Positions 1,665-63,215 of a DNA stretch of 64,000 nt are shown here, one piece after another. Every line of letters starts with the position of its first letter. Within the stretch, counting starts at the first letter, position 1. The position numbers were made by a program, and so were the translations under genes. The stretch comes from Ramazzottius varieornatus. Taxonomy: Eukaryota > Animalia > Tardigrada. The notes beneath the pieces were generated by a model. That model was not told the DNA's origin. It searched no databases and saw only the letters and a program-made list of their open reading frames with translations. Location of the stretch: positions 682,001 through 746,000 of the forward strand of contig BDGG01000008.1 in the NCBI GenBank assembly GCA_001949185.1, written 5' to 3'.

Positions 1665-1789
1665 TACTGTAATGCTTCATGAACTTCGCGAAGTGACGTC
1701 ACAGTGCGCGTAAGATTTACGGGTATGATGACGCATGTAACACACTCTCACTATGATGTAATTCGCGAAGTTCATGAAGCATTACAGTA
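1665..1789. mobile_element. MITE with TA target duplication (Tc1/mariner-superfamily-like)
   Basis: Perfect 28-bp inverted repeat TACTGTAATGCTTCATGAACTTCGCGAA (1665-1692) / TTCGCGAAGTTCATGAAGCATTACAGTA (1762-1789), including flanking TA; no coding capacity. Confidence 0.85.
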
Positions 1790-8976: not shown

Positions 8977-10456
8977 ATGTACCGAAATAACTCGTATCTC
9001 ATGGAAGTGGCTGAGAAGGCGACAGTCTACCGTGTTGGAAATTCCACAATACGGCTACAAGGCAAGACTCTCTTCGGACTCATCGGGGTATCTTCTTGTG
9101 CTATTCTGTATGTTCTGTATTCCTTGATGCCAACCAATGTCGGCTTCAGGTAAGGTACTTTTGGAGGGCAAGCTTTGACGTGGAACGACGTGGCAGTGAA
9201 ATGGTAATTAAGGCTGCATAATGTTATACAGGAAAAATCCTCGCTTCGGAGGCGCAAACGATATATACTTCCTTCCTCTACTTCCTTATAACACGACATA
9301 CCCTCTAACGAAGCCTGTGACTTTGGCCGGAGGATGGATAAAGTATCGAATAGGCGTTATCGCCGATATGGACTTGAAAGCAAAGTCTTTAGAAGAAGAA
9401 GGAAGCTGGATAAGCTACCTCAAGACCGGCTACATCTTGTACAATCCAGAGTATAGAGAGGTAAAAGTGGAATGGGAATCTGCACCGACCGGCATGACGC
9501 TGTTGAAGTCTTCTTGGGGCTTCGGTAACCGCGGGATGGAATTGTCGGAGCTCCTTGTCTTCAACGGGCGATTGTACGGTGTCGACGATCGGACTGGTGT
9601 TATATACGAAATCGAGGGGAACCTCGCTATCCCTTGGGTTATCCTGACCGATGGAAACGGACGGCACGCCAAAGGTATATAAAGCAAAGTTTTTTCAGCA
9701 AGTATCACGCCATTGAAAAAAATTTGACAAATATTTCGAATAAGTGCTGGCCGAGCCGCTAAACAGAACTTCACAAGCCTGCATACACTTGCTTTGTTTT
9801 GATGGTTACATATGTGTATGCAGGCACACGAAAGATGGGCGTTTTTCCCTGGGTTTTGATTCAACCATGTTTTTGCAGGTTTTAAGTCTGAGTGGGCGAC
9901 GGTGAAAGACGAGCATCTGTTCGTTGGCGGTTTCGGTAAAGAGTGGACATCGCCAACAGGCGAACTGATCAACGATAATCCTCTCTGGGTGAAGCGTGTC
10001 TCCGCAGATGGGCGAGTGTCTCATTGGTCTTGGAAGAAGAACTTCATAGCTCTTCGAGACAAACTAGGGATCAACTTCCCCGGTTACATGATCCACGAGA
10101 CGTGTGGGTGGTCAGAAAAGCACCGGAAGTGGTTCTTCTTACCCCGTCGGTTGAGCAAAGATAAATACGATGAGAAACTAGATGAGCATATGGGTTCTAA
10201 CCATATGCTGATAGCAGAGGAAGATTTTTCAGCCATAGAGGATGTTTTGGTGGGTGAAGTTAGCCCTACACATGGCTTTTCTTCTTTTAAGTTTTTGCCC
10301 GATTCTGGTGATAACATAATTGTGGCTTTGAAGTCTGAAGAAGACGACGGCAATGTCAGTAGTTACATTTTAGCCTTTGATTTGAAGGGCAAAATTCTTT
10401 TATCCGAAACTTTAATTGTCAAAGACTACAAGTTTGAAGGTATTGAATTCATATGA
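8977..10456 (+). CDS. CANT1: Soluble calcium-activated nucleotidase / apyrase (3 exons, N-terminal signal anchor)
   Basis: YNTTYPLT, IGVIADMD, RGMELSEL, DDRTG, GFKSEWAT, GYMIHE, WFFLPRR, GFSSFKF, KFEGIEFI. Exon 1 (8977-9149) has YRVGNSTIRL plus a hydrophobic segment. Confidence 0.95.
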
Positions 10457-13900: not shown

Positions 13901-14895
13901 TGAAAGCTTTGTTTGTTCCATCAACGGGTTTCTCAGTGTTGATCTGTTCAAGTTATGTGTTTCAATCAGAGGCAAAAGCGTAGTTTTTCGTTCTGGCGAC
14001 TGTACTGGCATCGAACGTCGAGCGTTCGCTTCAGACTTCGCTGCTGAAGATGCGAAGAATTTGCTTGGCTGGTTTGGACGATCTAAAGCATACCATAAAT
14101 TTAGCGAACTGAGTTTAGATTCCGCAATTGGGAGCTCGACATTCACCAACTCGACAAGATAGTTTCCTCAAGTAGCGCAAGCTTCCATTACTGTCGACTG
14201 GTAGCGTGCGCCACTTGCAAAACTGATCCTGTCCTGTGTTTCCCGGCAGCAGGCTTCCCAATCGGTCACAGAATTTCAGAAGCTTACTTAAAGTGAAGAT
14301 GGAATTTCGGTTGTTGCTTGTTGATGGACGAGAAGGCTGGTCATCGTCTTCGTCGTCGGTCATCATGTCGTTATAACTCTTGGAGGACGACGGCTGAGCT
14401 GTTGGTCTCTCATCCGCCGTGAACTCCACATTTGGAGGCATTTCTTCGTCAATCGAACCTTGTGTACCTCGCGGTAGTCCTGCGTCAGCATAATCTAATT
14501 CAGAAGAAAATCCAGGGCGATGTCTTTTGGCCGGTCGTTCATCTTGATTTGACACCACGTTATGACTGTTGAGTGGTCTTCTCGAAGATGCATTCCAGTT
14601 ACGTTCCGCGTTTATCGGACGACGTTGCTGTCCGACTTGCTGAGAATTCGGACGAGAAGGTTTCTTCCGGAACCAGGAGAAAGGATTGAGCATATGAACA
14701 ACATCGGAGACCGTTTGTTCCTACGGGAGAACATCCGGTTAAATACGATTATCAAGTAAAACCCAATCAATCAAGCGACACACATACCAGTAAACTAGTG
14801 CCACGACCGACGTCTTCGTTAAGTCGAGCTGGTGTCCCGTCCAAATAGTTCCATTGACCGTTTTCCGTTTCTCGGTCGTTATCCTCAGGATCCAT
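10954..14895 (-). CDS. NUP153: Nup153-like FG-repeat nucleoporin (multi-exon)
   Basis: RanBP2-type zinc finger WTCSECWTGNDDQKTQCAACGKAKP, a second degenerate CxxC..CxxC, many FSFG/FQFG/FGFG repeats, basic C-terminal RRVLVPKRRLNPR like Nup153. Start inferred at ATG 14895. Confidence 0.78.
12925..13121. mobile_element. Dispersed short palindromic element (GTGGCGCAC…GTGCGCCAC family), two adjacent cores
   Basis: AAGTGGCGCAC at 12961, CGTGGCGCAC at 13041 and GTGCGCCACTT at 13076, inside a nucleoporin intron. Confidence 0.7.
14133..14235. mobile_element. Dispersed short palindromic element (GTGGCGCAC family)
   Basis: AACTCGACAAGATAGTTTCCTCAAGTAGCGCA…GTGCGCCACTTGCAAAACTGATCCTGTC in nucleoporin intron ~14083-14287. 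Confidence 0.7.
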
Positions 14896-16247: not shown

Positions 16248-16368
16248 GCTCGGCAGACAAACAGTCACTAACTCGACAGGATTGTCTTCACAAGTGGCGC
16301 ACATTTTCATTGTTATGAAGTGAAGAGTGCGCCAGTTGGAAAATCGATCTGGTTGAGTGACGAGTTTG
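16248..16368. mobile_element. Dispersed short palindromic element (GTGGCGCAC family)
   Basis: AACTCGACAGGATTGTCTTCACAAGTGGCGCAC…GTGCGCCAGTTGGAAAATCGATCTGGTTGAGT. Confidence 0.7.
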
Positions 16369-21300: not shown

Positions 21301-22423
21301 TAATTGTTCGATTTTAAATGATTCGGAGACATAGCCGGTTCCGTAATGAGACATCAGCGAACGAATTCACCTAAGTGGCGCACCCTTTCAGCCCATTAAC
21401 AATGAAATATAGGAGGCTCGGCGAAGCTAAAATAAGCCACTTTAGCCGTTCTTAGCCGTGGCTAAAAATATTTTAGCCGCGGCTAAAGCAGCTAAAATAC
21501 TTTTAGCCACGGCTAAAATGTATTGTGCGTTTGATTGATTTATTGATGTTGAGTCGGCTAAAATGATTTTAACATCATTAAATCATTCGAACGCACGATA
21601 CATTCTAGCCATGGCTAAAAGTATTTTCGCTGCTTTAGCCGCGGCTAAAATATTTTTAGCCACGGCTAAGAACGGCTAAAACGGCTTATTTTAGCTTCGC
21701 CGAGCCTTCTATACAATGAAAAGGTGCGCCACTTAAAGAGCTGGATGAAATCATCTGCCGACGTCCCAAACAGATTTCCTCAATCAAGATGCTTCGTTTT
21801 TGAGCATAATATTGACTTGAATTTTGTTTAGTATTTATAAGGACCGGTAAGTATTTGTTTGTACGAATTAAGCTGATTGGTCGTCATCCACAATTGCTTT
21901 CTTTGCTGAATATTGACTTGATGTTTACAGCTCAACCGTGGGTCTTCCCAACACGCCGGTGTGGATCACCATGTCGCTCGTAGTCCACTGGATATGCTAC
22001 ATGCAGAATGCGTCGAACCCCATCATCTATTACGTTATGAGCGGTGAGGTTGTTGGTAGTGTTCTTAGAAACTGAAGTCTTTCCATAATCACTGAGACAG
22101 CTGACTGCCTTCGAGGCTTCACGCGATAATCGAGCTTGTCTAGCGCATTCATAGTTCCATTTCTCCTTTTATGCTCATCAATTCTCACGCAATGTCCCGT
22201 CGTTGTAGAGAAATTTCGCCGGGAATTCAATCGGATCTTCAAATGCTGCGTACGACCTGTCGGTCGTTTGCGGCGAAATTCCAGCGAAGTGTTTCGCTGT
22301 GGACGTCCTCCTGGGCAGACTTATTACCACACACTGGGCTTTCCGCCGAATCGTGCAGAATACTCTTCCTCCGTCCGACTCGATCACGCAATGCCACCAC
22401 CCAACCCCGTTGTCCAATTATGA
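18391..22423 (+). CDS. Allatotropin/orexin receptor-family rhodopsin GPCR (~8 exons)
   Basis: YIFPTSFEW, GNVLV..RNPSMRSVTNHFIVNLALAD, CLPPTILWDVTETWFLG, DRW motif (IAVDRWHAI), RSRRRVAMMLI..FAFCYLP, NPIIY, EKFRREF. Exons splice in frame. Confidence 0.9.
21408..21713. mobile_element. 306-bp MITE with long TIRs and 8-bp TSD (hAT-like)
   Basis: Termini TATAGGAGGCTCGGCGAAGCTAAAATAAGCC… / …GGCTTATTTTAGCTTCGCCGAGCCTTCTATA; near-full-length palindrome with TTTAGCC/GGCTAAA subrepeats; CAATGAAA duplicated at 21400-21407 and 21714-21721. Confidence 0.92.
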
Positions 22424-22871: not shown

Positions 22872-25800
22872 CTAGGCACGATTGAGCCTGGTCAACTTCT
22901 TTGGAGAAACAGGGCGTTTCTTGCTGAACGCTTGCGATGCCTCTTCGGCGGGCTCCGAGACACGAGCCCGAGTTCGCTTCTTGGAGGCTTCCACGTTCCT
23001 GCGTTTGGGTGCGTGCTGCCCGGGCACTTCGTCGTCCGACTCGGCCTCCGTTTCCACCACTGTTCGCTTCGCCGGGGAGATTACTTGCGGAGTCGCCCGA
23101 GGTTGCGACTGGCAGCGTGCCAGGTTCTTCTCGGCCATGCGTTCCAGCGACCACGCTTCCAAATCACTCCCAGAGTGCATCTCGGCACCCGAGAATATCA
23201 CCGTAACTGTCACGTCTCGGGTCAAATGTAAATCAGGCAAGAGCTACAGCGAAAAGAACATGTAATGTTAACCTTACGTCCATCCAATGAAAATGATAGC
23301 GTAGTTCTTGAAAGGTGAGCTTACCTTCGGACTCAGGATGAAGTACTGTCCCCCACATCGACTGGCCGTCTCCACGATCATCTTGAAGACTCGCCGTTCG
23401 TTCGTGGAATCCATCCCCTAAAACAAAACCAAGTTTCAGCGATGTCCACCTTTCCCATCTCTTGCACTGATTCCTGAAATCGAATGTCAGTGGCGACCCA
23501 CAAAACAAAGTGCACTTTCCTGACAACCACCTGCACACACTGGTCCGCAAACGTGCTACGACACTCATATACGTAGGTACGTGCAAGACGGACCAACTTC
23601 CTATACCGCTATCTTCTTTGTTCAGAAAACTTCATCTCGCTAATGTTCATCATGCCTATACCTGATTGATTTCATCCACTACGCGGAACGGGCATTTGGT
23701 CAGATCCTGTATAGCCAGCATGTACAGCGCTGTAGCGACACTCTTCTCTCCGCCACTGTGGACCTGCCCACTCAAGGTCTCGAGTGGTCGACCGGGTCTG
23801 TAAGAGACCTTGATGGCGAACCCGTACTTGTCGAAATTATCCGGGTTGTCCGGACGTTCGAACACCACATCACCGCTCAGGTTCATCAGCTTGTAGAACT
23901 CCGAGAAGCTTCTACCAATCTTATCACCAAGCTGCTGGACGTCGTCCAGCCATCTCGTGCGCTGCTGCGCCATCCGCTCCTTCTCCCGAGCTATCTCCTC
24001 CTTGCGGTTGGTGATGGAATGCTCCAGCTTGATCAGTGCGGCCTTATGTTTCTCCAGGTCACGACGAGCCTAAAGCGGACGAGCAGTAAGACAATCATGC
24101 TGCACCGTAAAACCAACCCGGACTGAATCCCTTACATTGATATTGATTTCACCGGCGGCGTTGAGCTGCTGCTTCTTCGCCCTATAAAGCGTCTCTAATT
24201 TGTCCATGTCCTTGGGCATTTCCAGGTATTGCTAGAGACAGCACACGAATGGTCTCGATATCCAAATCGTCCAGTCTGACCGCGTATACGAGTTGACTTA
24301 TGTAAGAATAGCGTGACGTACCTCAAGAGCGGCAGGAGCCAGCTCGGCTTTTTCTGTTCCAGGCACGTTGCTCAAGAGCTTGATGTGATCAGACAGGTTT
24401 CCTTTGAAGCGTGCTAAGTCACGGTCATACCGGCTCAAATTCCCTCGGTATTGCTCCTGCAGATTAGAATACAAGCATTACATCACTGGCTGAACCTAAG
24501 TTAGAAGACTAGACAGCAATAACAACCCAAAGAGCGGTCATTTTCTGCAAGGCATCTCGAAGAGCCTTGTTCTCTTGCAGCACGTCACTTCTCGCTCTGA
24601 CGAAATTGACTGCTACGTCCAAGGCCTTGTCCAAAACACCACTCGTCTTCGTCTGCAACAGAAAAGAGAGGATAACAAAAGACAGCCCAAGCATTCCAAC
24701 GTCGTAAGAACGCTTTACCTTCTGGTTCTTGGCCACAAGTCGCTTCCACGAAGCCGTGTTCGACTGAAGGATCTTGGCTGCCGTGCTTGCCCTGGCTTGT
24801 TCAAAGTCCAGCTTTGTCGCTTCCAGCCGCTTCAACCTAAACGTAAAAGGATCATATTGAAACTAGTTAAGTAGGATTCAGAGCTCAGAAATCACTCGGT
24901 AATATCGTTTCTTCCAAGCGGCGCATACTTTCAGTTAGTAACACTGTAAACATGCGCCACTTGGGAAAATGATCTGGTCGAGCTCATTTGCTGAGCCCCT
25001 AAATGTCTTGGCTGTATACTGAGCATACTCGTCTTCAGTGTCTTTAATTCGTTTCTTGAGACGTTCAGTATCCGAGACAATCTTCTGGCTGTCTTGAACT
25101 TCTTTGGTCAAGCGAGTGAATTCGGTCTGAATTGCCTTTAAGCGTTCTGACAGACTTGTTTCTTTCTCCTTGACAGCCTCCTGTTCCAGTTCTTTCATCC
25201 GCAGCTTGACCTGCAGTGGACGGACATCGGGCTTCTCACGGGAAATGTTCATCAGCTCCTTGAGGAGCTGCGACTGCTTGATGTCCATGCTTTGGATGGC
25301 CACGTTGGACGACATTCTTGTCGTACGGAACCTGTACATGCTACCACCTGCAAACGCCGTCGGTGCGTGCAGTTGGTTCCCATTTCGCGGCATGACTCGA
25401 GAGTATTCCTCGGCGAACTTCTCCGAGGCACTGTCGTAAACTGGCATGTTGTGCAGTTTCTGTTTGTTGCACAGGAATCGCTTGACAGTCTCCGGAGCGT
25501 CGAAAAGCTCGGAGACTAGTCTGTCGCATCTCACCATCCTGCAAAACGTCAAAATGAAATTTAAACAAGATCAAATCACTTTAAAAAATTTATGAAAATA
25601 GACAGATTTACGAAAAACCAAATCACAAAAATTAATAGTATCAAAATTAAAAAGATAATTAGTCGCCGGTTAGCAAATTCGGAAAAAATATACACCATGG
25701 ACCGGAAAAGTATAAGTCATGCCTTACGTACTCTTTAAAGCGGGTTGGGTCCATGCCTAAACTTTCGCGTGGTTGTGACGCGGTGCTCTTGGTCATCTTG

Positions 25801-28504
25801 CGGACAGGGACGCGAATGTTGTCCCGTTGGATCATGTCTCTCATTATCAGATCAATGTCTTGTTCTTCTTCGCAGATAAACATGTTTCGATTATCGTACG
25901 AAAGGACCGACTCCAGGATACTCGCGTGTCGCACATTCTTTTCTTTCATTTGAATCTGAAAAACAGACAAAACGCTTACAGATGTAGAAAATAATTTCCT
26001 TACGTGGATCTCGCCTGTTGTGTTAGATATTAATATAAGTCTAGAATGTTATATTTTACCTCTGCAAAGACCGGGCCGTACACTTTGCCCTTCAAGCGAT
26101 CGCGGTTGGCCTCCAGCCACTTTCGAGCTTGGATATGCTGCTGCTGTGGATGACGTTCCAGAAACTGCGTAAGCTGGTCCTGAGCGTTCTCCATCCGCTT
26201 GATATCACCAAGAGTAGCTCAAAACAGACACTCATACAACGTTGTCCAACACGCACACTTGGCCAAAACAACGAATAAAATTCGTACCGTGAATTGTCTC
26301 GTCCACTCTCCTTCGTTCCGCCAAGCACGCGTTCTTTTCTTGTCCCAACTTTTCCATCTCTCTGTTCAGCTTCTGCTGTTCCCTGGATTTGCTCAACGTG
26401 GCGGCCTAAAACCCATCAAGTCACGAAGACCCGTTCCAAGGTATCAGAACTGTTACGATGGAGTTCATAGCGGATAGTAAAAGTGACCACCAATAGACAA
26501 GCAAGCCGCTCGTTTTTATAATGTGACACATGCGTCCCGTATAGACAGATGAAACCGTCTAACCTCTTTCACGTGTAATTTAAAAGTCCCGCTAACCCAA
26601 TCAGTCCAGAAAATGAATAACGTATTAGGGAAAACCGTACTTTCAGCTCGTCGGGGTTGAGTTCCGGGTCCGCCGTAGCTTCCAGGTTGGACTTGGCTAT
26701 ACGCAGATCTGCGATCTTCCTTAGACGACCTTCATCCTGCCTTTTGGCAGCAGCCAGTTTGGCCAGTTCAGCGTTATTCTAGAGCACAAAGCAAAGATGG
26801 AATCATGGAACAGCTCGGATGAAGGATACCGCCACGCAATTCTTCTAACATTGTACGAAACATCACTCAAAAGCTTTCGAACAGGTCTACCAACTCACGG
26901 CTTTTTGCAGGTTCTCCGTCTCGTCAGCCAAGAACTTGGCATCATGAGCTCTGTTACAAGCTTCGACGTCCTTTTTGGCCGATGCTAGAGCCTTGCATGC
27001 CTCCGTAGTGATGACGGCATTCTTGTTCAGCTTCTTCTGGAACGGCATGATGACTTCGGCGTTCTTGTGAATCTCGTCCTTGGTCTTCTCCAGCTCAGCT
27101 TTGGCCTTCGCCAGTTCTGTCTGCTGTTTGACCAGCAACTGCAAGAATTACCAACCGTTAGACTCAATCAAAGTTATATGTTGTTTCTAACTGTACCAGT
27201 CTATCCTTCTTCAAGGCGGCCAAGTGCATGGTGGTCAGGAACTCCTGCCGCGCTTCCATGGCTTCCACGTCTTGTTTCAGATGTGCTTCTTTGTCCTTCC
27301 CTTCATCCAACGCCCGTCGCAGTTGGTCCACCTGCTTCGCTTCGTTCTGCCACTGCGTTCCAACCGTCTTCAGCTCTTCGTGTATCTTTTCCAAATCGAC
27401 ATTTCCGATCTAACAATCATGGAGCAAACTGATTATTTCTAACACAAAGTTCGAAAACGTCATGCGAGGTCGGCAAATGAAGCTTGCAAGATTGTTGACT
27501 CGAGTGGCGCACGCTTCCGTTGTTATCGGCAGGAAGAATGCGCCACTAAAGGTATGGATCTTGTACATTTCGTCCACCGGCCTTTCATGTGACGGCCGAC
27601 GGAATAAATTCATACCGTTTTCTCGGTGTTTTCCAGAAGCTGAACCGAGGACATGAGACTGAAGTCGATGACGCGCTCTTGAGGAAGAAACTGCACGAGG
27701 TTATCGGCCATGATATTGAGATCTTTGATCTCCCTCAGGTATCGCTCCCATGAGACGTGCTGGCCGTTAACGAAGCATTCGTTTGAGCCTTTCCTCTTGA
27801 GAACACGCTTAAGCACGATGGGTTCGTTTCCAGGGTTTGCTCTTTTAAATGAAAACGAAACATAATCTCAAACAACACTTAAAATTGGCGAAAACTATCT
27901 TACAAAGTAAGCTCGATCGTGGCGACAGGTCTGCCGTGTTTGATGTAGTCCGAGACACTGCTAGCTCGGCCGATGAAGGAGGGCGATGATCCGCAGCCGA
28001 TGGCGATGGCGCAGACGATGGAAGACTTGCCGCTGCCATTTCTGCCCAGGATAAAGTTAATTTTTGGACCCGGCTTTTGTATGACATGCTCGTATGTCCT
28101 GTAATAAGAAATAAAAATTATGGATAAACTCAAACTATCCCTAAAGCACAATCTAATACGGGCAATCTTGTTCTCTTGCAAGGACTCGCGGACACGAACA
28201 TACAAGTTCAACCAAGTTGTAACGGAGGAAAACCATGCAGACACTATTAAGATCAAAACGGCACTCCTTCAACCATTACGTAACCATCAGCGATCGTACT
28301 TGCCCAGCCGAACTCACCATAATACCTATAACATTAGGTCGAAAACACTGAATTTTCTGGCCGGAAGAAGACTACAGAACATCATAGTGAGACTTTTGAT
28401 AGACTCGAGAGGGTGACAGAGGTGCAAACAGCAGTAGAATCGACTTACATGAAATCTCGGAGTTCGATTTGCGTGATGGCTCCTCTAGGATAGTCCTTCT
28501 CCAT
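22872..28504 (-). CDS. SMC5: Structural maintenance of chromosomes protein 5 (many exons)
   Basis: GAITQIELRDFMTY, PGPKINFILGRNGSGKSSIVCAIAIG (Walker A), NLVQFLPQERV, HSGGEKSVATALYMLAIQ (signature), PFRVVDEINQGMD (Walker B/D-loop), QYFILSPK. Confidence 0.96.
24880..24998. mobile_element. Dispersed short palindromic element (GTGGCGCAC family)
   Basis: TTCCAAGCGGCGCAT…ATGCGCCACTTGGGAAAATGATCTGGTCGAGCTC in an SMC5 intron. Confidence 0.7.
27481..27565. mobile_element. Dispersed short palindromic element (GTGGCGCAC family)
   Basis: CAAGATTGTTGACTCGAGTGGCGCAC…ATGCGCCACTAAAGGTATGGATCTTG in an SMC5 intron. Confidence 0.65.
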
Positions 28505-31039
28505 AGTGAATACTCTGTAAAACAACCTACGAAAGACGAAGCGCTTGTTCATCAAGCATATGCATCCACCAGCTGCAGCAGCCATACAGACGGTGAGTTT
28601 TTGCCATTTCCGGTTGACGTCAAGCTGGTATCTACGATCTCTACAGAACATTCATGGCGACAAATAGTTTGCTAACCTGGTGTACAGCTCCTGATGAGAT
28701 CCGTGGGTGTTCCAAGGTATGAATCCGCTGGAGAAATCCCTGGGAAAGCTCGAAAGCTTGAAAAATAGCTGCTGGCTGCGACACTGCGTCGTCGATCGAG
28801 ACGGCTCCGATCCCTATGGAAATGAAACAGAGTGGTAGACTGAATTGTCATCCACGATGATGATGGTTGATGGAGACCAAGAAGGCATCACGAAGCGAGA
28901 GATTGCCAGAATTCCCTTCTATAATTGCCTCCGGAAACGCAAAGAGTTTTGTGCCGACTGCCGAAATACGCGCGACGGATCTTCTGGTAGCGAGAAGATT
29001 ATCAGCGAGTGAGAGCGCGTTTGACGTCAGACTGCGGATCGTTCTGGCGGACACAAAGACCAATCAAAAAGTCCGTTGGCGCTGAATGGGCGCCAAGAGT
29101 TTTCGGCTGGGCGGCATGCCTTGTGGTCTGGGAGCCAGCAAACCACTCTAACAATTGCCCCTTCCGCCAGTGCGAACCAGGCGGGGATACATGCCAACGG
29201 AGCGAGTTAAGATGCGAGGTGGACGCCTCTTTCGTCCGCACTAACATATCAAACCGTGGTAAACACTTTGGTCATACTCGGATCTTCCGGGATCTTCTTT
29301 TGTTCTCTTCGTAAATGTCCCACTTGCAAGTTTCATCAACAAGGCGCCGATGAAAACCGAGGCTTGTCATTTTCCCTCCTTTGCTACTCTTTGTTCGTTG
29401 TTTTACCCGAACTTTTGCCTCATCTTTTTCTTTCTTTTTGTTTCAAAGTCAAAAGTCCAAAACTGAGATTTTGTTCGTTGTTTCCTTTTCGTTACTTCAC
29501 TGACGCTTCTTTTTCTTGCAGGTTCTTGTTTCCGACTGGGCGGTGAAAGGTCGGAAGATGCCGAGCGTCGAGCTTCCTGAAGAGGCTATTCCGAAGGACA
29601 AGATGGCGGCGGAGCTGATGCAGTGGATCACGAAAGCTGCAGAGGATTTTCCTGGAGAAGGTGACACGTCTCAGTCCTTCCTCGACGAGATATTTCCTCC
29701 TCCGCAAGAGTTTGAAGGTGGCGTCCTGACACAACAGCAAGAGGAAGTACAGTCAGAATCGTTGGACCACAGCCTGCTGGACGCTAAACTTCCTGATATC
29801 AGCGTCGGCATCATGTGGCCCCTTCTGTCTTCAGAACTGAACGGTATGTCCTCCACGTCGCCATGGCCGAACAAGAAAGAAAGCTTGGATAAGGCGGAAG
29901 AGCCGAAAGACTTGCCGGTTCAGTTAGAGACCCCCGAAGAACCCAAAGATCTCCCGGAAGTGAAGTCGGAGTCCCCAGCCGAACAGGTGCCATATAACGA
30001 AGAAGGACCGAAGTTCGTACCTGAAGCTGAAGAAAAGAACACTCCCGAAGAGCTCAGGGAAGTACCGGAATGTGTCTTTGTGGGCGTTGTCGACGAGGAA
30101 AGTAAAGTGAGCGGATGGGAAGACTTCATCACACAGTCGGAGATCGGCAAAGGTATTCGTAACTTTTGGTTTACTTTCGATTCTTATCTAACGGCGCCTC
30201 TTTCCATCATCAGGTGACTTTTCCCTGCTGGAGGCTGACCAAGGTATGGGAAGCGACTTTGGAAGTGCAGAGAAGGCTCTGGATCATCCAGCAACCTACA
30301 CTGAAGAAGAAAAGCCACTGCTACTTCTGGACTTCTCGCCACAAGGTACTCCCACACCGCCTCCGTCGGAGTCGACGTCCATAACCGAGATGAAAGTAAG
30401 TGAGTCAGAAGCAGGAGACGTCGAGAACGACTTGGAACAGCTGGATGAGTGGATGGAGCAAGACCCTTCTCTTCAGCCTTGTCCAACGATCGACGATGTG
30501 GAGGTGAGCGACTGGGCCACTGAGGACGACGAGTACGTCACGGCAAGTAAAGCTGAACCTGAAAGCGCAGCAAAGACAAAGACTCCCGGTCCGGACTTCC
30601 TTCTTCCTGGATCCACCGACGAGCGATGGTATAACACGTCCCCCCAGCTTTTGAGTGTCGAAACGAGGTAAGTCAGTGTACTATCTCAATAGCCTTGCTA
30701 TTGTCATCGGACAAGTATCGAACGTTCCTGGTTCTGGGTGTAGATACTGAATCTCATCCGGAACAACGATGTCTCCATCATCACTGGAAACACTGGGTGC
30801 GGGAAGTCCACCTATGTTCCACTCTTCATCATGGACGAGATGGAGATTCGTGGTTCCAGCTCGAAAGCCTGCAACATTCTTGCTGTACTGCCTCGTCGCT
30901 TCGCAGTGACAAGCTTGTCAAGCTATATCTATCAGAAGCGCGGCTACTTTCTCGGGAAGAAGATCGGCTATCAAGTACGTTCACTTCGATCTTTCAAATT
31001 TTTTTCCCAAAATTGGAGCTGAGCAAGCAAACCGTACAA

Positions 31040-31115
31040 GGTGTTCCTTTCCTGTGGCGCACGTTCTCGTCGTAATTGGTCGGAAGAGTGCGCCACTGAA
31101 GTTAACCATCTTGCA
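31040..31115. mobile_element. Dispersed short palindromic element (GTGGCGCAC family)
   Basis: CTGTGGCGCACGTTCTC…GAAGAGTGCGCCACTG in a spn-E intron. Confidence 0.65.
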
Positions 31116-34100
31116 TGTTTTTTTGCCCAGCTTCTGGATGTTGTCTTTTTATGTTGTTCATTCATCTTCGTCGTTCTGCAGGTCGGCATACAGACGGCGG
31201 TCCGCTCACGAGGAACGAAGATCATGTTCGTTACTATTGGTGTCTTCCTCCAAAGAGCCTGTAACGTATTGAGCAAGAGTGAAGATCCTAGCAAGGAGGA
31301 CCCTTTGGCTGGGTAGTCTCACGTCACCATCGACGAGGTGTGTGAAGCCTTTCACTCACCGTAGCTTTTGCTCGGATAGTTTTTCTAAACTGTCAATTGT
31401 GCAGGTGCATGAACGGTCTGAAGATGTCGACTTTGCCATGCTGTTGATGCGGCAAGCCGTTGGGAAGACTAAGGCGAAGGTAACGTAATTAAACTTAGAT
31501 TCTATATTCGTATCTTTCAAGTAACAAGTGGTGAATACGGTGCCGGGAAATTTTGCAGATTATTCTGATGTCAGCCACAATGTCCCTGAAGCCCTCCCTG
31601 GATTACTTCAAGAATGACATTACCACGATGCGGCCTTCGCATTTCGACATCACCGGAAAACCCGCGCAGTCTGTCGAAGTTGTGTACTTGGACGACATTG
31701 TCAGCGACCCTCCGGTAAAGTCTAGCATACTTTTAGAGGCTAGCATTGACTTAACGTTTTCTCGTCGTTCTTTTCAGGCCTTTTATATAGATAGACAACA
31801 GTTCTCGGATCTCCTCATGGACTTGGTACTTCGTCACATCGACAGGGAATTTCAGCGATATCCGTAAGTCGCATAGATTTCAAGACGAAACCACGCAGGA
31901 AGCTACAACAGTGTAACCGGCGATCATTCTGACAGGAACAAGAAGGACCAGGGAACCGTACTAGTGTTCCTTCCGGGTCTGGACAACATCGAACGAATGC
32001 TGGAGCGTATCAAGGAAGATTTCGGATACAGAGTGTGAGTTTTCGCTGATCGACTGGATTGACTTTTGATCTCTAATCTATCCGGGACAAGTGTTCCAAG
32101 TTTATCGATGGCTTTTTGAAGACTGTAGGCGAGAATAAGTTACACACGCTTACACATGCTTTTTTCGATGCAGTCCAAGACAGTAAAAGTCTGCAAGCTG
32201 CATTCGTTGTTGTCGCAGCAGGTCCAGGCCAAAGTCTTCCGGAAACTTCGACCGCACGTTCTTCGAATCGTACTGGCTACCAACATTGCGGAGAGTTCCA
32301 TCACTGTACCGGAAGTGGCGAAAGGTACTCGTACTGAATTACTTATTCAACTAGGAATTGTTTGATGGATGACACCCAATGATTCCCAGTTTACATACCT
32401 AGTAACGGGATATGTTCCAGTGTACGATTTTTGCTTGACGAAACGGATAGTGACCGACAAAGAGACGAAGATGACTTTCCTCCAGATGCAGTGGGCATCT
32501 CAGAGCAACTGCGACCAACGCAAAGGTATGATAAATCTTGCATCTAGAAATTAACACTGAGTCCGCACACCGTTCCGTTGAAGCGGAACGAAGATAAGTT
32601 ATTAAATTTGTGTGTTCGTAGGTCGAGCTGGACGAGTGCGTGATGGCCAGGTCATTCGACTGGTTCCTCAGTGGTTCTTCGAAGAGTTCGAGAAGCATCC
32701 TCGTCCAGAACTTTAGGTACGGATATTACTGTGCAACATAAATCAAACAGTCTAGATTCTTAATAGCTCCACCAACCTTGTTTTGATGATTGACAGCTGG
32801 TGGCGCCAACTACATCGATCCTGCGGCCGAAGGTGATGGGATTTCCAGGGAGTCCGTTAGATCAGATGTCCAACAAGATGATCGGACCTGAGAAGCCCGA
32901 TGAACAGGAAGTTCAACGGGCCATCTTGTGGCTGAAAGAGGTAGGTCGATCTTTGGGCTTTCTAATTCGTGCTGAGTTGAACTTTCACAATAGTTATGAG
33001 CTCCACTTGCAGAAAGGTGCGCTGAGCCTGTATCACAAGAAAGAACTCAAGACGGACGACGGGGACACATCTGCTTCCTCCTTCCCCTCTCTCCAGCTCT
33101 GTGCCGACTAATCTATTTCGCGTTCTCTTTCGGCATGGTGGACGACGGTATAGTCCTGGGTGGGTTCCTTCGCTAATTTAAAGCGCACTCGGTAACCAGA
33201 GCTAAACTCTGCTCTTTCTTGCAGCTTGTGTGATCAACGCCAAAAGTCTTCTGTCTTCGGCGATTCGAACGCAGGACAGTGGTTACTTCTCGAAGCGGTC
33301 TTTCGATGGTGGAATGAAGAGCGAGTCCCTGGCATCTTTCCGAGCTTTCCGGGTAAGGGGAGTTCGTAACGTGACGAACGTGAAGACCTTCATATAGTAG
33401 CACATCCAATATTTTCGGTTTCTGGTCGATGAGAGCTTGCGTTTCTCTAGTTGACTGACAATCAGAAGACTGAGACTTAGGAAGAATAAAAATTTTCTAT
33501 TTGAATAGGTTTGGATGTCTCGAGGTGAAGCCGGTGAGTTCCCCGCTCTCAACCAGGAAGGTGAAGAAAGTGACAAGTCCCGTGCCGAACAGCGATGGTG
33601 CGAAGCAAACTCGCTTTCATTCATTCGACTGCGAGAGGTAATCTCCAGGCTTCTCGTAAATATTCTCATTCCATCTTTTGCAATGTTGACATCTCGATTA
33701 GTGTTGGCGGTTTCTTTCCGGACTCGCATCATGGTGTACGAGATCAGGTTTCGAGTCTTCCAGATCGGACTGTACAACGGAAACCCGACGTACTTCCTGA
33801 AGGAGTTCGAAGCTGACCCGACGTGGCAGCTCGTCATGAAGGTAGTTTCCCTTGAAAGTTTTGCTGGAACATTCCGGTGGTTTATTCAAAGTATCTTCTT
33901 TCAGATCATACTTGCGGGCGCCTTCTACAGTATTCCGACTACGTTATTTCCGCTCCCAAGCTGAACCCAGGCAACACGGCCGAAACTCTCAAAGAAGCTG
34001 CGGAAGCTAACTTTAAAAAGTTCGCCGGCCTGGATCCCTTCCGAACAGTCCAGGTATCCCTTCCTGGTCAGTGGAAGTACTTGATGCCGCTGTTCTACGA

Positions 34101-35250
34101 CACGCAGCTTCGTCGCTGGCTTGCTTCTGTTACGGAAAGCGACATGACTCCACAGATCATCTATTGTGGAAGCCAGCAAGTCCCTTTTTTTACTGCGTTT
34201 TTTCTCATGAGTTTCATGCCATCAAAATTTTCGTTAATAGTTTCAGCTTCACGCCTTTAATTCTTATCCTACAGGGCTTTAATTTCGCTGAATCAAACGG
34301 TCGATGATGCGCCAAGTCCACCTTGCTGTCCGGCGAGAAACTCATCCGTTTGAATCACCGGTACGAACACAAAGTTATCTCGTTTGAACATTACGCCATG
34401 TCATGTTGTTTCTTCTACGGGTAGAAATGCTTACGGAAGGAGAGTGATCGATGTGAGCTTCGACGCAATCCATAACAGCTGTGGTCAAGATCTTCTCAGC
34501 CAAATGCCGGACCTGCCATGGTGGGTTTCGCATCCATAGACTGTCTCCTTTGACACACAATGTCATATCCTCATGCCAGAGTTAGGGCTGGCAAACTGCA
34601 TTGTATTCTGTCTAATCATGATGTCTTCTTGTTCGTGAAGGTTCAAGCTCGAACGGACTTCCGACCAGCGACAAATTTCGGCAGCGGTATTCCCCATGGT
34701 CGAGTCGCAACTTGGGAGCCCAACCCGCCCACAAATCCGCATTACCAAGGTAGGTGGTAAAATTATGCAGTTAGCTGTCGTAAACTGAAAAGGGAGGCTA
34801 CCGCGGCAGGAAATAGTGAGTTTTGACTGTGTCAGATTTTCTTTTTCATTTTGTAGGCTGTGGACGAGTGTTCCTTTTACGCCCGGATCTTCGTTGTGGA
34901 CCGGATCCCATCCAGGAAGTTGATGGTTTGATCATCAGCATGGTGACTGAACGCCGTTGCCGACCACCGGTTCGTATCGTTTACACTTTGGTACTTTTCT
35001 CGAGTTTTCAACTGTGAAGTTCGTCACTGTTCCTGTCTTCCGATAGGTTCCCTCGGAGTAATCCACACTCACTGGAAGATTTGTTCTGGCTGACTTGAAG
35101 GTGTCGGTGTCGAAGACGGGCCTGCGCAAGTCATGCGAAGCTGCAAGGGCGGTATCGTGGAGGTGAGCGTCTCTATCTGTCGCTTTAATATGTAATGATG
35201 GTTGTACAGCGGTCAGCGTAGACTCTTTTAAGATCTAAATTTCTAGTATA

Positions 35251-35404
35251 CTGTAGTGCTACCAAATTATCGCGCACTCTAGCACGTGAACAGTAAATGA
35301 TGCCCGGGTGTGAGCCAGCGAGGCTAAACTGATAGCATCTGATCGCACTGGGCTGCGATGACTCATCACGTGGTGCAGTGCGCGATAATTTGGTAGCACT
35401 ACAG
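35251..35404. mobile_element. MITE with CTGTA…TACAG termini (Tc1/mariner-superfamily-like)
   Basis: 28-bp TIR CTGTAGTGCTACCAAATTATCGCGCACT / AGTGCGCGATAATTTGGTAGCACTACAG; TA on left, AA on right; inside a spn-E Tudor-region intron. Confidence 0.82.
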
Positions 35405-37667
35405 AAGTATTTTTTTTGCGGCCAGGTCTTCTTTGTGGACTTCGGTATACGGTCTTTGGTCTCGTGCGGCACCATTCGCTTCGTTCCTCCGTTCGAGAAG
35501 CAGTGTATGTCGTTCTGGGAGACGCCAGCACTCGCACTGGAATGCTCCTTGCCGCATCAGTACGTCTACTGTGGGACAGAGGAAGGGAAGCTGGACCTTT
35601 GGTCGCGCTACGCAAAGGAAAGCCTCTGCTGTGACGTAAGCATCTGACATCTAGAATTGAATGGGCAATTGCTTAACGATATTCACCAGTTTCCCAATGC
35701 GGCCAAAGGTTATCTGTTGACTACAGATTGGAAAGAGTCACGGAAATGGCGCACGATCTACTCACTGTGGACCCTCTTTCTGGTTTTCATTTGTCCATGT
35801 ATCGCAAACTTCAGGAGCAGGGTGTATTCTACAAGGATGAGTTTGCTTTAAGGCCGGTACGAACCCATCGCAAGGCTGACAGTTCTGGCTCAACGAGTAC
35901 GCCTTCAGATAATTGTTTTCTTTTTCCAGCGGATCTTCCCGTTGGAGAAAGTCGTCGTCATCCCGCACGCGGCTCTGCCGGACCCAGTTTACCTTCCGAA
36001 CGATGCGCTTGGACCCAACGCCTCCGTCAAGGTGCGGCTAAGTTTATGTCCCGTGGATATTCTTTTTACAAGCAAGCTCATGAAATTAACCCTATCTTTC
36101 AGGTTCCGCTTCCTGGTCAACCGGACAGCCCGTTCGAAGTTCAGGCATATGCTGGCGGAGACGATCGATGGACGTACATGCTTCCTCGGTAAGCATACTG
36201 TACATCCAGCTTGGTCACTGGGTGGCCGAGAAGACTTGAATAACCTTGGTCCGATGTTCTTTTGTAGTATGGTCCAAATTCAATCGGAAAGCCTGAACAA
36301 CGTCGTTCTTCGGAAGCAGAAGCCGGGTTCTTGTGCGGTCTTGGTGCCAGGCCTAAACTACCTTGCTAGCTCTCTGTTTCCGGCTTACGACTTTTTCATC
36401 AACAGCGATGGTGTCTTGGACCACGACGATGTCGAGACGGTAAGCCTGAGTGGAAAAACAGCGACCCGTTTTAATTTAAAACGTCAGAGTACCTTCTTAA
36501 AGGTCAGATGACTCTAGTCCAGTTTACTAACGCTGTATGCTTCACAGATTCGTCAGCTGAGAGAGGCCATGAACACCGTTCCCGTTGAAGCAAACGAGTA
36601 CATCTTGACTGGCCGCACGTCTGCCGAAGAGGTTGATTACTTCAAGCAGGCTCCGGAAATCCAGGCTGGTCTGCGCGAAATGCTTGTTACGTGAGTACAG
36701 TACGCATACAGTACATACAAGCACGAACTGACTGACAGATCCAGGTTGAGTAATTGGTGAAATTTTCTTTCAGGTCGTTCCGACGTTTCCGACCGGCCAA
36801 GATCACCTGTGAATTGAGACCCGGCGACCCGACTAGCTCCCTGTACTGGAACAGCGCACATCCCGATCGAATCTCCCTACCAGAGGACCCGGCTGAACGT
36901 CGATCCCTTTTGAATCGCATCAATTACGATTAGGTTGCGAGGATCGGGATGCGCAGTCTTTCAGTAGTTTCTCCTCGTTCTAGTTCAGAATATTTAATCT
37001 TTCATTACACTTCTAGTTTAGGCTATCTTTTTTTATGTACGATTTTCACTCCGTTGTTAGCAGCAGCTTTCGAGTACTAGTTGAATAGGCCGCTTTCTTT
37101 TGGGTTTCGGGCTTCCAGGATTTTAGCCTTTCAGCTGTTACAGACAAGATAACCATTCCATGTCGAACATTGTTCTTTGTCTACATTAAGCTCTTTGGAC
37201 GGAAACTAAGCGTTGTCATATTTGACTTCGATTTTCACGGATATGGTCGGATACTACAGAGGGAAAATAAAACGGCGCAGAATTAATTTTGTGTTCGGTG
37301 GACCGACGGTGGTGAGTGTGGTGACATCTACCGCGTCGAGCTGAATATCAAATTTGTCAACCAGCTTGTCTGTTACCTATGGTGCGCCATCCCGTGGAGC
37401 GAGAGTGACTAGACAGTCCATCCCAACTTGAAAACAGTTCATCTTTCGAACTTCCCGAGTTCCCGTTCTGTTCCGCTGGAAGACAAGCCACTCGTTCATA
37501 TCTCTTTGCTTCTAGCATTTTGATACGGAGTCTGACGGAGTCTGGAGGTGCGGATCAACCAACCTGTGCTACACCATTGACTTAAGAGTACTTGGGCCTC
37601 GGACATCTCGGCTGACGCGTTTGACGAAGTGAAGATCAGTATACGACTACACTCTAGTGACCCTACT

Positions 37668-38766
37668 ATGTGTGACCATGGCCATGGACGTGGACACGGC
37701 GGTGGAGGACATGGGGGACACGGACATGGCGGAGGATCTTGTGCTGATGAACACACTGGTGATGATGTGGAGCGTGGAGTACAGTACAGTTTGTTCATGA
37801 AGATTGACCTGGATCATTTGGAATGGTGAGTGTATAATTACACCGAAAAAGTCTTTTGAAGCCTCGCATGTACACATGTATATCACATTTTTCACCTACG
37901 ACTTTTTATGTTTGAAGTTTAGGGGAGGCCGACGAAGGATCTGGAAAGACGGTGTTTCGTGCTTGGGAAGACAGAGCAGCTCGGGACAAGGTATCAAACA
38001 TTTGGATCCACTTAAGTGACTGAAGTCTTAAGTTTAGCTAATTGAAATATCGTTATATGTTTTTGCATATAGTATGTTGAAAGCATGGATGATCAAGAAC
38101 TCCTTTTCAATATTCCGTAAGTCGAACATGCTAGCTGCCGTCTTTTACAAGTTTCACCTCACGAGAGATATGTGTCTTAGTTTTACCGGAAATGTGAAGC
38201 TTAAAGGAATCATCGTCAGCGGAGAAGACAGTGATACACATCCCGCAACTATGCGCCTGTAAGTTGCGCACCGCATGGTCTTCCGGGTTCGTGGTCATCC
38301 AGAACCTTAGGAGCCACGGCTGAAAATCAGGACGTGTGGTTTTCTCGACTTTGTGTTTGACAGGTACAAGAACAGACCCCAAATGTCTTTCGACGACACC
38401 ACTCTCACTCCGGATCAAGAGTTCGAACTACAGCGCGATCCCACGGGTGACATCGAATATGGAGTAAAGTAAGCTTTCGTGCCGTTCATTCCTGGAATGC
38501 TGGACGCTTTACGCGTGAAACGGAATGAAGCATAACTTGTCCCCTCTGATCACAGGATCGTGAAGTTCGCAACGGTCCACCATTTGACCATTCACTTCAA
38601 GAGAAACTTTGGCGGTGAGACCACGAGAATCTACTACATCGGCCTGAGAGGCGAATTCACGCAGTCTCGAAGAGAGGAGATTGTGATCGCGAACTACGAG
38701 CTGAAACCAAACCCTTGTGATAATACGCTCAAAGAGAAGACAGCCTCTTCCCATTTCGTACAGTAG
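37668..38766 (+). CDS. PITHD1: PITH domain-containing protein 1 (multi-exon)
   Basis: His/Gly-rich N-terminus, GSGKTVFRAW, DQELLFNIPFTGNVKLKGIIV, RLYKNRPQMSFDD, HHLTIHFKRNFG, TRIYYIGLRGEF. Confidence 0.93.
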
Positions 38767-50043: not shown

Positions 50044-50427
50044 TCAGGAAGCAGCTACCTTATCCGACTGGTCCGGTCTGGTATCTTTCGTTGGCTGACC
50101 TTTGCCCGCGGCGGCGGCGGCGGCAGCGCCGGTTTTAGTGGAATGTTTGGCCTGTTCCGCATCACGACGAGAGGCATCCTGCAGCTGCTGCACGTCGACT
50201 TCTTCGGCTGGGAGGTGCACGTATCGAATGACAGATCCACGGATAAAGATGTTCTTAACAGCCAGCATATGCGGGAACTTCTCCGCGTCCGTCACAGCAA
50301 TGTCCAGAAGTTTCATGTTGAGATACTGATCCACAGAGTCCAGTGTTCCGTGAAGGCTCATGTCGTTCTTCAACTCCACCACGATCTCTTTCCCCACCAG
50401 CGACTTGAAAAACGAGTAGAACAGCAT
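50044..50427 (-). CDS. LSM2: U6 snRNA-associated Sm-like protein LSm2 (intronless CDS, extended C-terminus)
   Basis: MLFYSFFKSLVGKEIVVELKNDMSLHGTLDSVDQYLNMKL…IRGSVIRYVHLP…LQDASR. Confidence 0.97.
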   Translation of the reverse strand: MLFYSFFKSLVGKEIVVELKNDMSLHGTLDSVDQYLNMKLLDIAVTDAEKFPHMLAVKNIFIRGSVIRYVHLPAEEVDVQQLQDASRRDAEQAKHSTKTGAAAAAAAGKGQPTKDTRPDQSDKVAAS

Positions 50428-51583
50428 GATCGAACCTCCTAAGTCAAGCAGCACGAAGCGAATCGGGGATCGGCGGTATAAGACGAGAGGGCGAAGAAAA
50501 TTCCAGAGTGACTCGATGGAAATCGGGAATTTGAGAATCGGAATTTATATAGAAGAAAATCAAAGTTGTTCGTTCAATCAAAAACAGAAAAAATCAAGTC
50601 ACCGTATTTTATTTCATTCTGAGCTTATTCTAATTGATTTTGGGCGGGATTGATCGAACGAACTGCGTACCGTGTCCGGAAAAATTAATCATCGAAAATG
50701 GGTGTTAGATGGCGTCACACGGCAGTAGCCAATGAAATTTGCGCGTGCGCTGGAGTAACGTCGATATTGGTCGTCGGACAACAAAGCTCCAATTTATTTG
50801 TTACGCCCATTATCGACGCTTGATTTTTGCGTACACTGTATATTACGTATCTGCCTCTTTCTGGTGTTAATTATTATCCGCGAATCGCGATCCAATGATC
50901 CTATACGGTGGGCCAGCGGCAGAGTGATCAGTAAGGCGTGGTCAGATGACATCATATAATCGGAGCATGAAACTAAAGAATATCCGTAAACGACCAATCA
51001 TCGAACAGAATTTTCGTCTTGGACGATCTTGATTGGTCGATTACAGAGAATTTTCTGTTTGTCCCCACTCCATACTTCCCAAATTAACCCCGCCTTACTG
51101 ATCTACTGTGCCGCTGGCCCACGGTTCCGAAGTTCTCTTCCTTGACAGAGTCCTGCCGAAGTGATCTTTAAAGCTTCATGCATGACACCAGCAAGGGGCA
51201 GCTTGACATACACTAGCAGCAACGCGACGACGAGTTCTGATTCGGAAACAGGAAAATCGGTTGGCAGGCTTGTTCTCGGTGTGCTCCAGCAGAAGGTACT
51301 TTCGAACTTCCGAAATCATCAACCCTCTCCGTCCCACAAGTCCGGACGGATCCAGCGTCCACTGGATATCAGCATCTCTGCAGGTGACAGGTAGGCTACC
51401 GGTCATTGTCTAACTTATCAAAATCCGTCGCGGTATCTGTGGCTGGTCTCCGCTTAATGAGTTATCTCTGACCGATAAACTCTTTTAATTATATTCCCTA
51501 TCAGTCGTAGGCGCATCCAGTTTCTTCTTGCAAGCTATGGACATCAGATTGTTGCCACCTCCACTGTCACAAAATTAAACGGT

Positions 51584-60814: not shown

Positions 60815-62715
60815 ATGAATGGAACGGCTACTGCTGCCTCGTCTACGGACGGTGAGTCGTGCTTTGGATGAGTCTTGCGAATATTGAGCTTCCGACTCGA
60901 GCAACTACTGTATAATAATTAGGAAAGGTTCGGTGTGGTGCGGTGAAACATTTTCATCATCCTTCGCAGAGTCAGTGAAAATTTTTTCACCGCGGTGAAG
61001 AACGGTGAAAGCATTGAAAGTGTACCATTGATTGACTGATTGGCTCGAGACGAGTTTTGTACATGCTCATACTGCCCGCGCGGACTACTGTAATATACNN
61101 NNNNNNNNNNNNNNNNNNNNNNNNNNNNNNNNNNNNNNNNNNNNNNNNCGGTGAAGGATGGTGAAAATGTTTCACTGCACCACACCGAACCTTCCCTAAT
61201 AATGATGCAGTTTAGATTATCGGAAGCTGATTGAGGAATGTCAGACACTACGATCTCCCAGGCTGGACGTCGTACCTGTGCTCGTGACGGACATCCGCAA
61301 AGCTTTTGAAGACGCACGACTTCGTATCACGCCAGAGGGAGAGGCTTTATTGGATGAGCTTACGCATCGGTCTCTCATCTACTTTCGCCATTTCCTCAAA
61401 AGTCATGAAAACGCTGAAAAACACTTCTCTGCTGTTAAAGTCCGTACTTACGATTTGGTTAGTCATCTGCAACGAATTGAAATTCGACGTCAGCAAGGTG
61501 AGTTTCTCGGAAATATGTATGATGGGATTCATCGTTACACAGAATAGTGTTGTTAACCAGTACGTCACAGGACTTGCGCACGATTACGGGCACTTTTGGA
61601 TGAACCAAGCCGAAGACTGTGTGGAAAGAAAGCCGAGATCTTCCGACGGAAGCGACTCCTCTGACTCTGGTATCTCAACCAATGAGTCAGTCAAACAGGA
61701 TAAAGGTATAGTTCTGCTGCAAGTGTTTGTGGTCAAACTGGGCAAGCAGTAAGTTTGCATCTTATGTGTGCTTGCTCAGTGTGTACTCGTACCTCGAAGG
61801 AGTCAGTTCCGAGCAAGATGAGCTTCCCACGGAAGATGAACTGCTGAAGCTGTTCAAGAAAATCCAGGATGCGCTTGTCGTCGATGCCTCGGAGAACCGC
61901 TTGGTGATTCACGAAGTCAACGGCTTTGTCAAGGATCTGGAAATTGAACTCCGCTATGCAGAACTGCGTCATTTTGGTCTCATCCGGGAGAGCGTGAAGT
62001 TGGAACGACTGGAAAAAGAGCTGATCCTCCGTTTATCCACGATATACGAAGACATGCTTCGGAGCAGGAACAAGCTGAATGCCGTGGGTCTTATCGAATT
62101 TATCGAGCAGGAAATCTTCGTTCAGATACCGTGTACAGTTAGCGCGTAAGTTATTCTTTTGTTACTGACTTTTCACGATTCTACTCGTGTAACCGTGATG
62201 AGGCATTATTACAGTACTCTGACGCTTTGATTTACAGGAAACTTGATGAGAAGAAGGACGATGTCTCTTCTCGGTCTGCAAAGTGGAAAGCAGCGTTAAG
62301 CGAACCTGTTGGCCAGGCTATGTGGTCGATGTTAGTTAAAACGGACAGTTATGGCGTCCTCAGAGGCTGGACAGTGGATCGTTTCGCGGAGGAAGTTGCA
62401 GCGATGTGTGAAGTTATGGAGTCTGTAGACTGGCCTGCGGAGTTCAGCGCTATGGTCGGCAAGGGTGCTCCAACCATAGCCGACCAAATCATGGCTGTGG
62501 ATGCTATGTGGAGAGGTAACAGATTGAAGGGTGTGGGTACAGTCGTTATGAAGGCTTGCTGTCGTCTGATACCAGTGCAGTATTCGCGATACAACTACGT
62601 CTGGGAGAATGGTCCACTCATCGAAGCGTCGAGGTCGCTCGTGCTGGCAGAAGAAGAGGAAGAGCGAGCATTCCTGAAAACTCTGGCTGCTAGGAAAAGA
62701 AAGAGCTCGCAGTAA
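60815..62715 (+). CDS. Hypothetical multi-exon helical protein
   Basis: Exon 1 ATG 60815..G|GTGAGT, followed by co-oriented protein-like ORF segments 61278-62715 separated by short GT-AG introns; no family recognised. Confidence 0.55.
60920..61198. mobile_element. hAT-like non-autonomous element spanning an assembly gap
   Basis: TIRs TAGGAAAGGTTCGGTGTGGTGCGGTGAAACATTTTCATCATCCTTC / GAAGGATGGTGAAAATGTTTCACTGCACCACACCGAACCTTCCCTA; flanks ATAATAAT/ATAATGAT (7/8); N-run inside. Confidence 0.75.
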
Positions 62716-63000: not shown

Positions 63001-63215
63001 CATGTTCATATAGGCTCAACTTTAGCCTACTTCGAAGAAGTCGGTTTCTACTTGCACCGTTACTTGCACCGTTACATGCAAGTCCTGATGTCATGGGACC
63101 AGTGAGCTTACCTGCACGAAATATCCACGCCTACCGGTTTTCTGTTTCCGTGTGTAACGGTGCAAGTAGAACCGACTTCTTCGAAGTAGGCAAAAGTTGA
63201 GCCTACATGAACATG
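63001..63215. mobile_element. MITE-like ~62-bp inverted repeat element
   Basis: CATGTTCATATAGGCTCAACTTTAGCCTACTTCGAAGAAGTCGGTTTCTACTTGCACCGTTAC … GTAACGGTGCAAGTAGAACCGACTTCTTCGAAGTAGGCAAAAGTTGAGCCTACATGAACATG; no clear TSD. Confidence 0.75.

Follow-up and report, generated by a model that had tools for sequence, protein, structure and literature searches.

Which event left the heptamer TACAGTA in an exon of a spindle-E/TDRD9 gene of the tardigrade Ramazzottius varieornatus, and did this event cost the animal the gene? The heptamer lies in a 64 000-nt stretch of contig BDGG01000008.1 (hereafter ‘the window’; all positions refer to it), and an earlier note made from the sequence had read it as the excision footprint of a Tc1/mariner-type element. 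In Drosophila, Spindle-E is required for most germline piRNAs and for retrotransposon silencing (PMC4232550). On balance, we favour the reading that a fixed insertion sits in a dead, transcribed spindle-E gene, that it is the probable scar of a lost TA-targeting element with CTGTA ends and that it was probably not the first lesion. The main finding is that a tardigrade has likely lost, and recently, its single copy of a core piRNA helicase; the footprint alone would be a textbook scar.

The insertion and its register

The exon that carries the insertion reads TTTCAG|ATC ATA CTT GCG GGC GCC TTC TACAGTA TTCC GAC TAC, with the heptamer 21 nt inside the exon. The frame entering at 33905 ends IILAGAFYSIPTTLFPLPS*, and the frame downstream of the insertion reads YSDYVISAP...GLDPFRTVQ. 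Removal of 5 nt gives IILAGAFYSDYVISAP, which aligns without a gap to VVIAGAFYPDYMISSP of P0003, a TDRD9-like protein of the tardigrade Paramacrobiotus metropolitanus. The motif pattern AGAFYxxY was found at the same spacing in 106 of the 120 TDRD9 homologues listed; as for the other 14, ten keep the motif spacing by eye and four are without GAF. The proposed reading of the exon, with its AGAFY register restored by the loss of 5 nt, is thus borne out by both P0003 and the TDRD9 homologues.

A search with the post-insertion exon against 1.84 billion representative proteins produced three matches, P0003 being the only full-length one. A 70-residue protein from an ENA assembly (P0001), likely from a related tardigrade, is 79% identical to this exon. 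A metagenome scan for the exon returned 594 pattern matches, none of them confirmed; a homologue search for longer proteins with ORF 33509-33961 gave 303 candidates, none significant; and the ESM Atlas gave low-scoring unrelated clusters only.

When removals of 2, 5 or 8 nt were compared, the 12 top-scoring products were all 5-nt removals; judged by protein homology, a net gain of 5 nt relative to the ancestral register is firm. The best protein score is shared by seven start positions, which correspond to five distinct DNA products of 5-nt removal, so that the placement of TACAG is not fixed by homology. The earlier note had seen a different gap placement as fatal to its reading; as it turned out, the net +5 stands, and TACAG is one of five tied readings. 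By inspection, the inserted bases are not a tandem duplication. Neither strand has a further TACAG, ACAGT or CAGTA in the surrounding 80 nt, whereas AGTAT recurs there on both strands and ATTCC recurs as well.

The public DNA run X2 (possibly the source of the assembly) had no differences from the window at 30600-35276. RNA contigs of four other studies span the insertion ungapped (X4 at 33903-34176, X8 at 33903-34143, X13 and X17 at 33903-34054); the X13/X17 piece of 152 letters has four other letters, all listed, none of them inside the heptamer. None of the runs is recorded as RNA; we treated X4, X8, X12, X13 and X17 as transcripts on the ground of their GT-AG joints. X12 does not cover the insertion. 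Differences from the window shared by X13 and X17 identify a second strain, about 1.2–1.7% diverged (a hand count gave 12 other letters in ∼1010 exon letters of X13; among 2037 interior sites, 35 differ). The insertion predates the split of the two strains, and neither an allele without the 5 nt nor one with an element in place was found among the two strains seen. The 5 nt, which might have been missing from the raw reads, are present in assembled contigs of X2, X4, X8, X13 and X17. Assembly error is ruled out by the identity with X2 together with the ungapped contigs from the four other studies, and removal of the 5 nt at the RNA level by the RNA contigs that carry the insertion.

Decay of the spindle-E gene

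A frameshift-aware alignment of P0003 with the spliced gene model (in which the start codon, the first intron and a few others were placed by eye) contains 440 identities in 1190 aligned residues and is collinear. Joints in the RNA contigs are of GT-AG type plus one GC-AG. Exon 32174-32323 has a Helicase_C match; a Pfam search with exon 35426-35635 alone gave no Tudor match. Given the full-length match to P0003 and the collinear alignment, the gene is most probably the TDRD9/spindle-E orthologue.

The copy in the window carries 13 lesions, a count to be taken as approximate: three stops, nine indels and one lost acceptor (Table 1). They were called from the frameshift-aware P0003 alignment, from tblastn and from the strain comparison; frameshift calls at 35486 and 35511 were left out of the total, as they cancel out where the alignment is poor. 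Lesions at 32714, 33062, 33721, 33926 and 34310 were verified in both strains. X13 has extra bases at 30642, 35115, 35752 and 36345, which appear to fit the local frame of P0003, and we read the corresponding gaps as deletions private to the strain of the window. All four strain-specific indels are thus read as deletions in this strain; none is listed as missing in exons of the second strain. The idea, implied in the earlier note, that the insertion disabled the gene finds no favour here, as the insertion is one of ∼13 lesions and lies at codon ∼964, downstream of the frameshift at codon 341, the stops at 471 and 733 and the 16-nt deletion at 799.

Table 1. Features of the spindle-E/TDRD9 locus and related elements in the window
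Feature	Position	Strand	Details
Spindle-E/TDRD9 pseudogene	29558..36933	+	28 introns in model; transcribed and spliced
1-nt deletion	30640..30645	+	First break, codon ∼341; read as private to the window's strain; X13 has one base more and its frame fits P0003
In-frame TAG before DEVH motif	31314..31316	+	Codon ∼471; too near exon end to read in second strain
In-frame TAG at exon end	32714..32716	+	Codon ∼733; both strains; no other letters at 32620-32714 in X13, X17, X8
16-nt deletion and frameshift (DGD[LTFL]GH of P0003)	33061..33063	+	Codon ∼799; shared; 33011-33158 ungapped in X13, X17
Lost splice acceptor	33719..33721	+	CGG where homology expects CAG; both strains
TACAGTA, net +5 nt	33926..33932	+	In exon 33905-34175; likely excision or deletion scar (TA + CAG + TA)
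GC-AG intron	34176-34274	+	Used in X13, X17, X8
Frameshift, read as 1-nt deletion	34308..34321	+	Shared; X17 piece 34275-34359 without gaps
Frameshift	∼34893	+	Likely shared; no indel listed for X13
TAA stop	35059	+	Too near exon end to read in second strain
1-nt deletion	35115	+	Read as private to the window's strain
154-nt MITE-like element	35251..35404	.	In intron 35163-35425; ends CTGTAGTGCT...AGCACTACAG; 55-nt arms; TA left, AA right
8-nt deletion	35752	+	Read as private to the window's strain
Large deletion	∼36324	+	Likely shared; no indel listed for X13
8-nt deletion	36345	+	Read as private to the window's strain
121-nt MITE-like element	1667..1787	.	Another family, same CTGTA ends; TA both sides
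Third TA-CTG element	60908..61210	.	Across N gap; inverted ends, 4 mismatches in 20 nt

Translated from its ATG, the spliced model yields no more than an acidic peptide of 351 residues, which stops short of the helicase. The transcript could still yield a short acidic peptide; the N-terminus of P0003 is acidic too. The first 341 codons (29558-30641; 23% D+E) are open, with 12 coding lesions falling later, an arrangement of marginal significance (chance ∼0.05). The frames of neighbour genes at 37660-38766, 9212-10456 and 50044-50544 (PITH, apyrase and LSM domains, respectively) are open where scanned; nothing in these genes points to an assembly damaged throughout.

Differences between the strains were classified at 35 of the 40 X13 places (of the others, three fall in the MITE, one adjoins an indel and one was not displayed), from a list in which differences near exon ends are absent. 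The 35 exon differences divide into 27 nonsynonymous, including a new stop at 30933 private to the second strain, and 8 synonymous. The neutral expectation is 70–77% nonsynonymous; pN/pS is 1.0–1.45 (95% range 0.45–3.7), and if omega were 0.3 or less a split of this kind would have P of at most 0.0009, in a test made without an intact neighbouring gene as control. The strain differences in the spindle-E copy are neutral and, together with the disabling lesions, characterize this copy as a pseudogene. From five private versus five to nine shared lesions, the death of the gene can be placed at roughly 2–4% per-lineage divergence, a crude figure.

The earlier note had also suggested that the new CAG could act as a cryptic acceptor at 33930 (MK|YSDY). 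The join of 33841 to 33931 is indeed in frame, but it is absent from the 10 joints listed for 32600-34500 in X13, X17 and X8: all three runs enter 33905 and none of these joints enters 33931, in contigs that drop rare forms. X4 also uses 33905 (among 15 of its 33 joints listed). Because of the stops upstream of exon 33905, an acceptor at 33930 could not rescue the protein; minor use of it may occur, with rescue by such use ruled out. The lost acceptor at 33721 is replaced, in both strains, by cryptic acceptors entering 33702 and 33764, the latter of which keeps the frame. Continued production of a functional protein, through the new CAG or through other cryptic sites that bypass the lesions, would agree with the transcription of the gene, with the in-frame join and with the frame-preserving acceptor; we consider it exceedingly improbable, given the joints observed, the neutral strain differences and the presence, inside spliced upstream exons, of two stops (31314 and 32714) and of the 16-nt deletion. 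A version of exon 33905 ending only at 34053 was dropped: agreement with the frame of P0003 comes from the GC-AG intron that starts at 34176. Both donors are in use, the second strain also splicing from the upstream GT donor at 34054.

Could an intact copy exist elsewhere? Single contigs of even depth span the gene body in the DNA run, where coverage rises over repeats only, and no second copy at 85% likeness or more was found in the DNA and RNA contigs compared with the window. An X-bridged gene model scored 435 bits against residues 480-1000 of P0003; the best non-self match among the 120 listed reached 268 bits. No tardigrade protein other than P0003 is named among these 120 (7989 candidates were scored, many matches being without a name); there is no Hypsibius protein among them either, so that this listing is moderate evidence on copy number. 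The contigs compared at 85% likeness and the protein searches make a single-copy loss of spindle-E likely, not proven.

Local elements and the origin of the heptamer

Inverted-end pairs of the form TA-CTG...CAG were found three times in the window, and pairs of the form TA-CAG...CTG not at all. The family of the element in the spindle-E intron has a depth of ∼10 400 versus 25, roughly ∼400 times single copy with both arms mapping, or about some hundreds of copies. Loose ends at 35249 and 35404 indicate that in other copies the left side continues across a TA and the right side starts with TA. The family is short, has inverted ends and a TA duplication and is present in many copies, as is characteristic of TA-targeting MITEs. 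The ends TA-CTG...CAG and the presence of a second element in the same gene, both described in the earlier note, are confirmed, with TA on both sides at 1667-1787 and AA to the right of 35404. The CTGTA ends of the local elements recall, we presume, pogo/Tc2-type elements. By eye, no transposase was recognised among the 44 long ORFs of the window, and a 22-nt element end had no matches in metagenome contigs. TcMar and Tc4 are reported among tardigrade DNA transposons, many of them non-autonomous (bioRxiv 10.1101/2023.11.06.565293), in a work whose supplements may already include these MITE families.

The window holds other repeats as well. A palindromic family with the core GTGGCGCAC...GTGCGCCAC occurs at 12940-13102, 14149-14244, 16271-16365, 21375-21743, 24915-24990, 27481-27546, 31031-31124 and 57601-57694, one copy sitting in an intron of the spindle-E pseudogene. 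Two more foldback elements with other ends lie at 21408-21713 (143-nt arms) and 63001-63215 (46-nt arms).

The insertion has the make-up of an excision footprint: a duplicated TA around 2–4 bases, bases that match the end of a local element and a net gain of nucleotides. It is quite likely, in our judgement, that the heptamer is the scar of a MITE of Tc1/mariner type. In 2 000 000 simulated random 5-nt insertions, a fraction of 0.00088 gave TACAGTA or TACTGTA, a figure that overstates the case as the site was originally picked for its footprint look, and 0.015 gave any TA-NNN-TA. In the window, TACAGTA/TACTGTA occurs 19 times versus 3.9 in shuffles (none of 100 reaching 19) and 6.5–7.7 under Markov models of order 2–4, and is the most frequent of the 32 TA-NNN-TA words; there is no enrichment of the 2-nt form TAAGTA/TACTTA (13 versus 21). 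Without five sites read as element ends the count is 14 versus 6.5–7.7 (P 0.007–0.026), a modest excess; some of these 14 sites fall in open frames, e.g. 37780 and 38759. Three more such words lie in introns of the same gene (36196, 36696 and 36707), the last two spaced by 11 nt in TA/CA-rich sequence; all three (36196-36713) are possible further scars.

A Tc1/mariner-type element would have inserted at TTC|TA|TTCC, duplicating the TA; a transposase would then have excised it, leaving three terminal bases, and end joining would have fixed TA-CAG-TA. The 3-nt cut is borrowed here from Sleeping Beauty, not from the local element family. Alternatively, the host may have deleted the hairpin from the left TA to the TA inside the right end, with the same heptamer as the outcome. 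Since element ends read TA-CTGTA...TACAG-TA, excision by transposase and deletion by the host are indistinguishable here. The footprint claim keeps its +5, its TA-CAG-TA form, its match to element ends and its word enrichment, with a transposase as one of two candidate agents. Selection on the gene would have lapsed already, or about then, roughly 2–4% per-lineage divergence ago.

Could the insertion have come from a routine error of repair or replication as the pseudogene decayed (e.g. AGTAT or GTATT added after TAC), with its resemblance to a footprint due to chance? With ∼13 lesions in the gene, indels are common here; five removals tie, AGTAT occurs nearby and the choice of the site was made post hoc. 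On the other side, none of the eight other coding indels is clearly an insertion in the copy of the window, all being read as deletions; a random 5-nt insertion yields the heptamer with a chance of ∼0.0009; and matching element ends are abundant. We therefore hold such an error to be unlikely, and the scar of a lost element remains the preferred reading. A bolder version of the latter makes the element insertion the first, inactivating hit on the pathway that silences such elements, all other lesions coming later: a cut-and-paste element would have knocked out the only spindle-E of the lineage through insertion into the best-conserved C-terminal motif of the gene, the footprint would be the founding lesion and the MITEs would have spread after ping-pong amplification was lost. 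The insertion is among the older lesions, is found in both strains and strikes a nearly invariant motif; a MITE lies in the gene too, as do the three intronic words, which with the heptamer give four non-end sites versus 0.75–0.9 expected (P 0.007–0.013, in a test chosen after looking). Nevertheless, with five verified and up to nine possible shared lesions, the prior of being first is ∼0.11–0.2 and nothing orders the lesions, and fixation of a null allele needs relaxed selection whatever lesion came first. Both the order of events and the subsequent spread of MITEs are accordingly improbable as proposed, more so than a chance error. If true, this would be a selfish element that disabled its own silencer and left a scar that can still be read.

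Comparison with known systems

Ramazzottius varieornatus is parthenogenetic; it appears to have lost spindle-E recently while Paramacrobiotus keeps an intact one. With two strains that carry shared and private lesions, the loss can be dated and ordered, and the decay concerns an animal whose genome is rich in TA-targeting MITEs. The questions are testable in a laboratory animal: is an asexual lineage shedding its ping-pong piRNA defence, and did DNA transposons spread before or after?

Sleeping Beauty elements end CAG...CTG, whereas the local elements run CTG...CAG. What the insertion shares with the Sleeping Beauty and Tc1/mariner footprints is the same heptamer, a net +5 nt at TA and three terminal bases between two TAs. 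The canonical Sleeping Beauty footprint is given as TACAGTA or TACTGTA, with 2–4 terminal bases for Tc1/mariner elements generally (PMC6943129).

Supplement 15 of PMC7943196 lists no RdRP and eight PAZ-PIWI proteins for R. varieornatus, Piwi and Ago being counted together, and two Piwi genes are described in Hypsibius (PMC9948961). PMC12505628 deals with Dicer copies; within the part of PMC6925440 covered here, piRNA occurs in the references only. For parthenogenetic animals, the part of PMC12147562 covered here reports expansions of Piwi and Tudor genes, not losses. At the level of titles and abstract beginnings in non-subscription literature, we found no report of spindle-E or piRNA loss in tardigrades; the supplement of PMC12147562 may tabulate an absence of TDRD9.

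Like P0003 and Drosophila spn-E, the gene described here has a DExH helicase with the same downstream order, 37% identity over 1190 residues (to P0003) and the AGAFYxxY motif; the gene of Paramacrobiotus is intact, in contrast to the ∼13 disabling lesions and neutral evolution seen here. Genes of the piRNA pathway have been lost in nematodes and parasitic flatworms (PMC12147562, PMC4323106). As in those animals, a piRNA-associated Tudor gene is lost in an animal lineage; there the losses are complete, whereas R. varieornatus retains the gene, splices its transcript and, through its strain differences, allows the loss to be dated.
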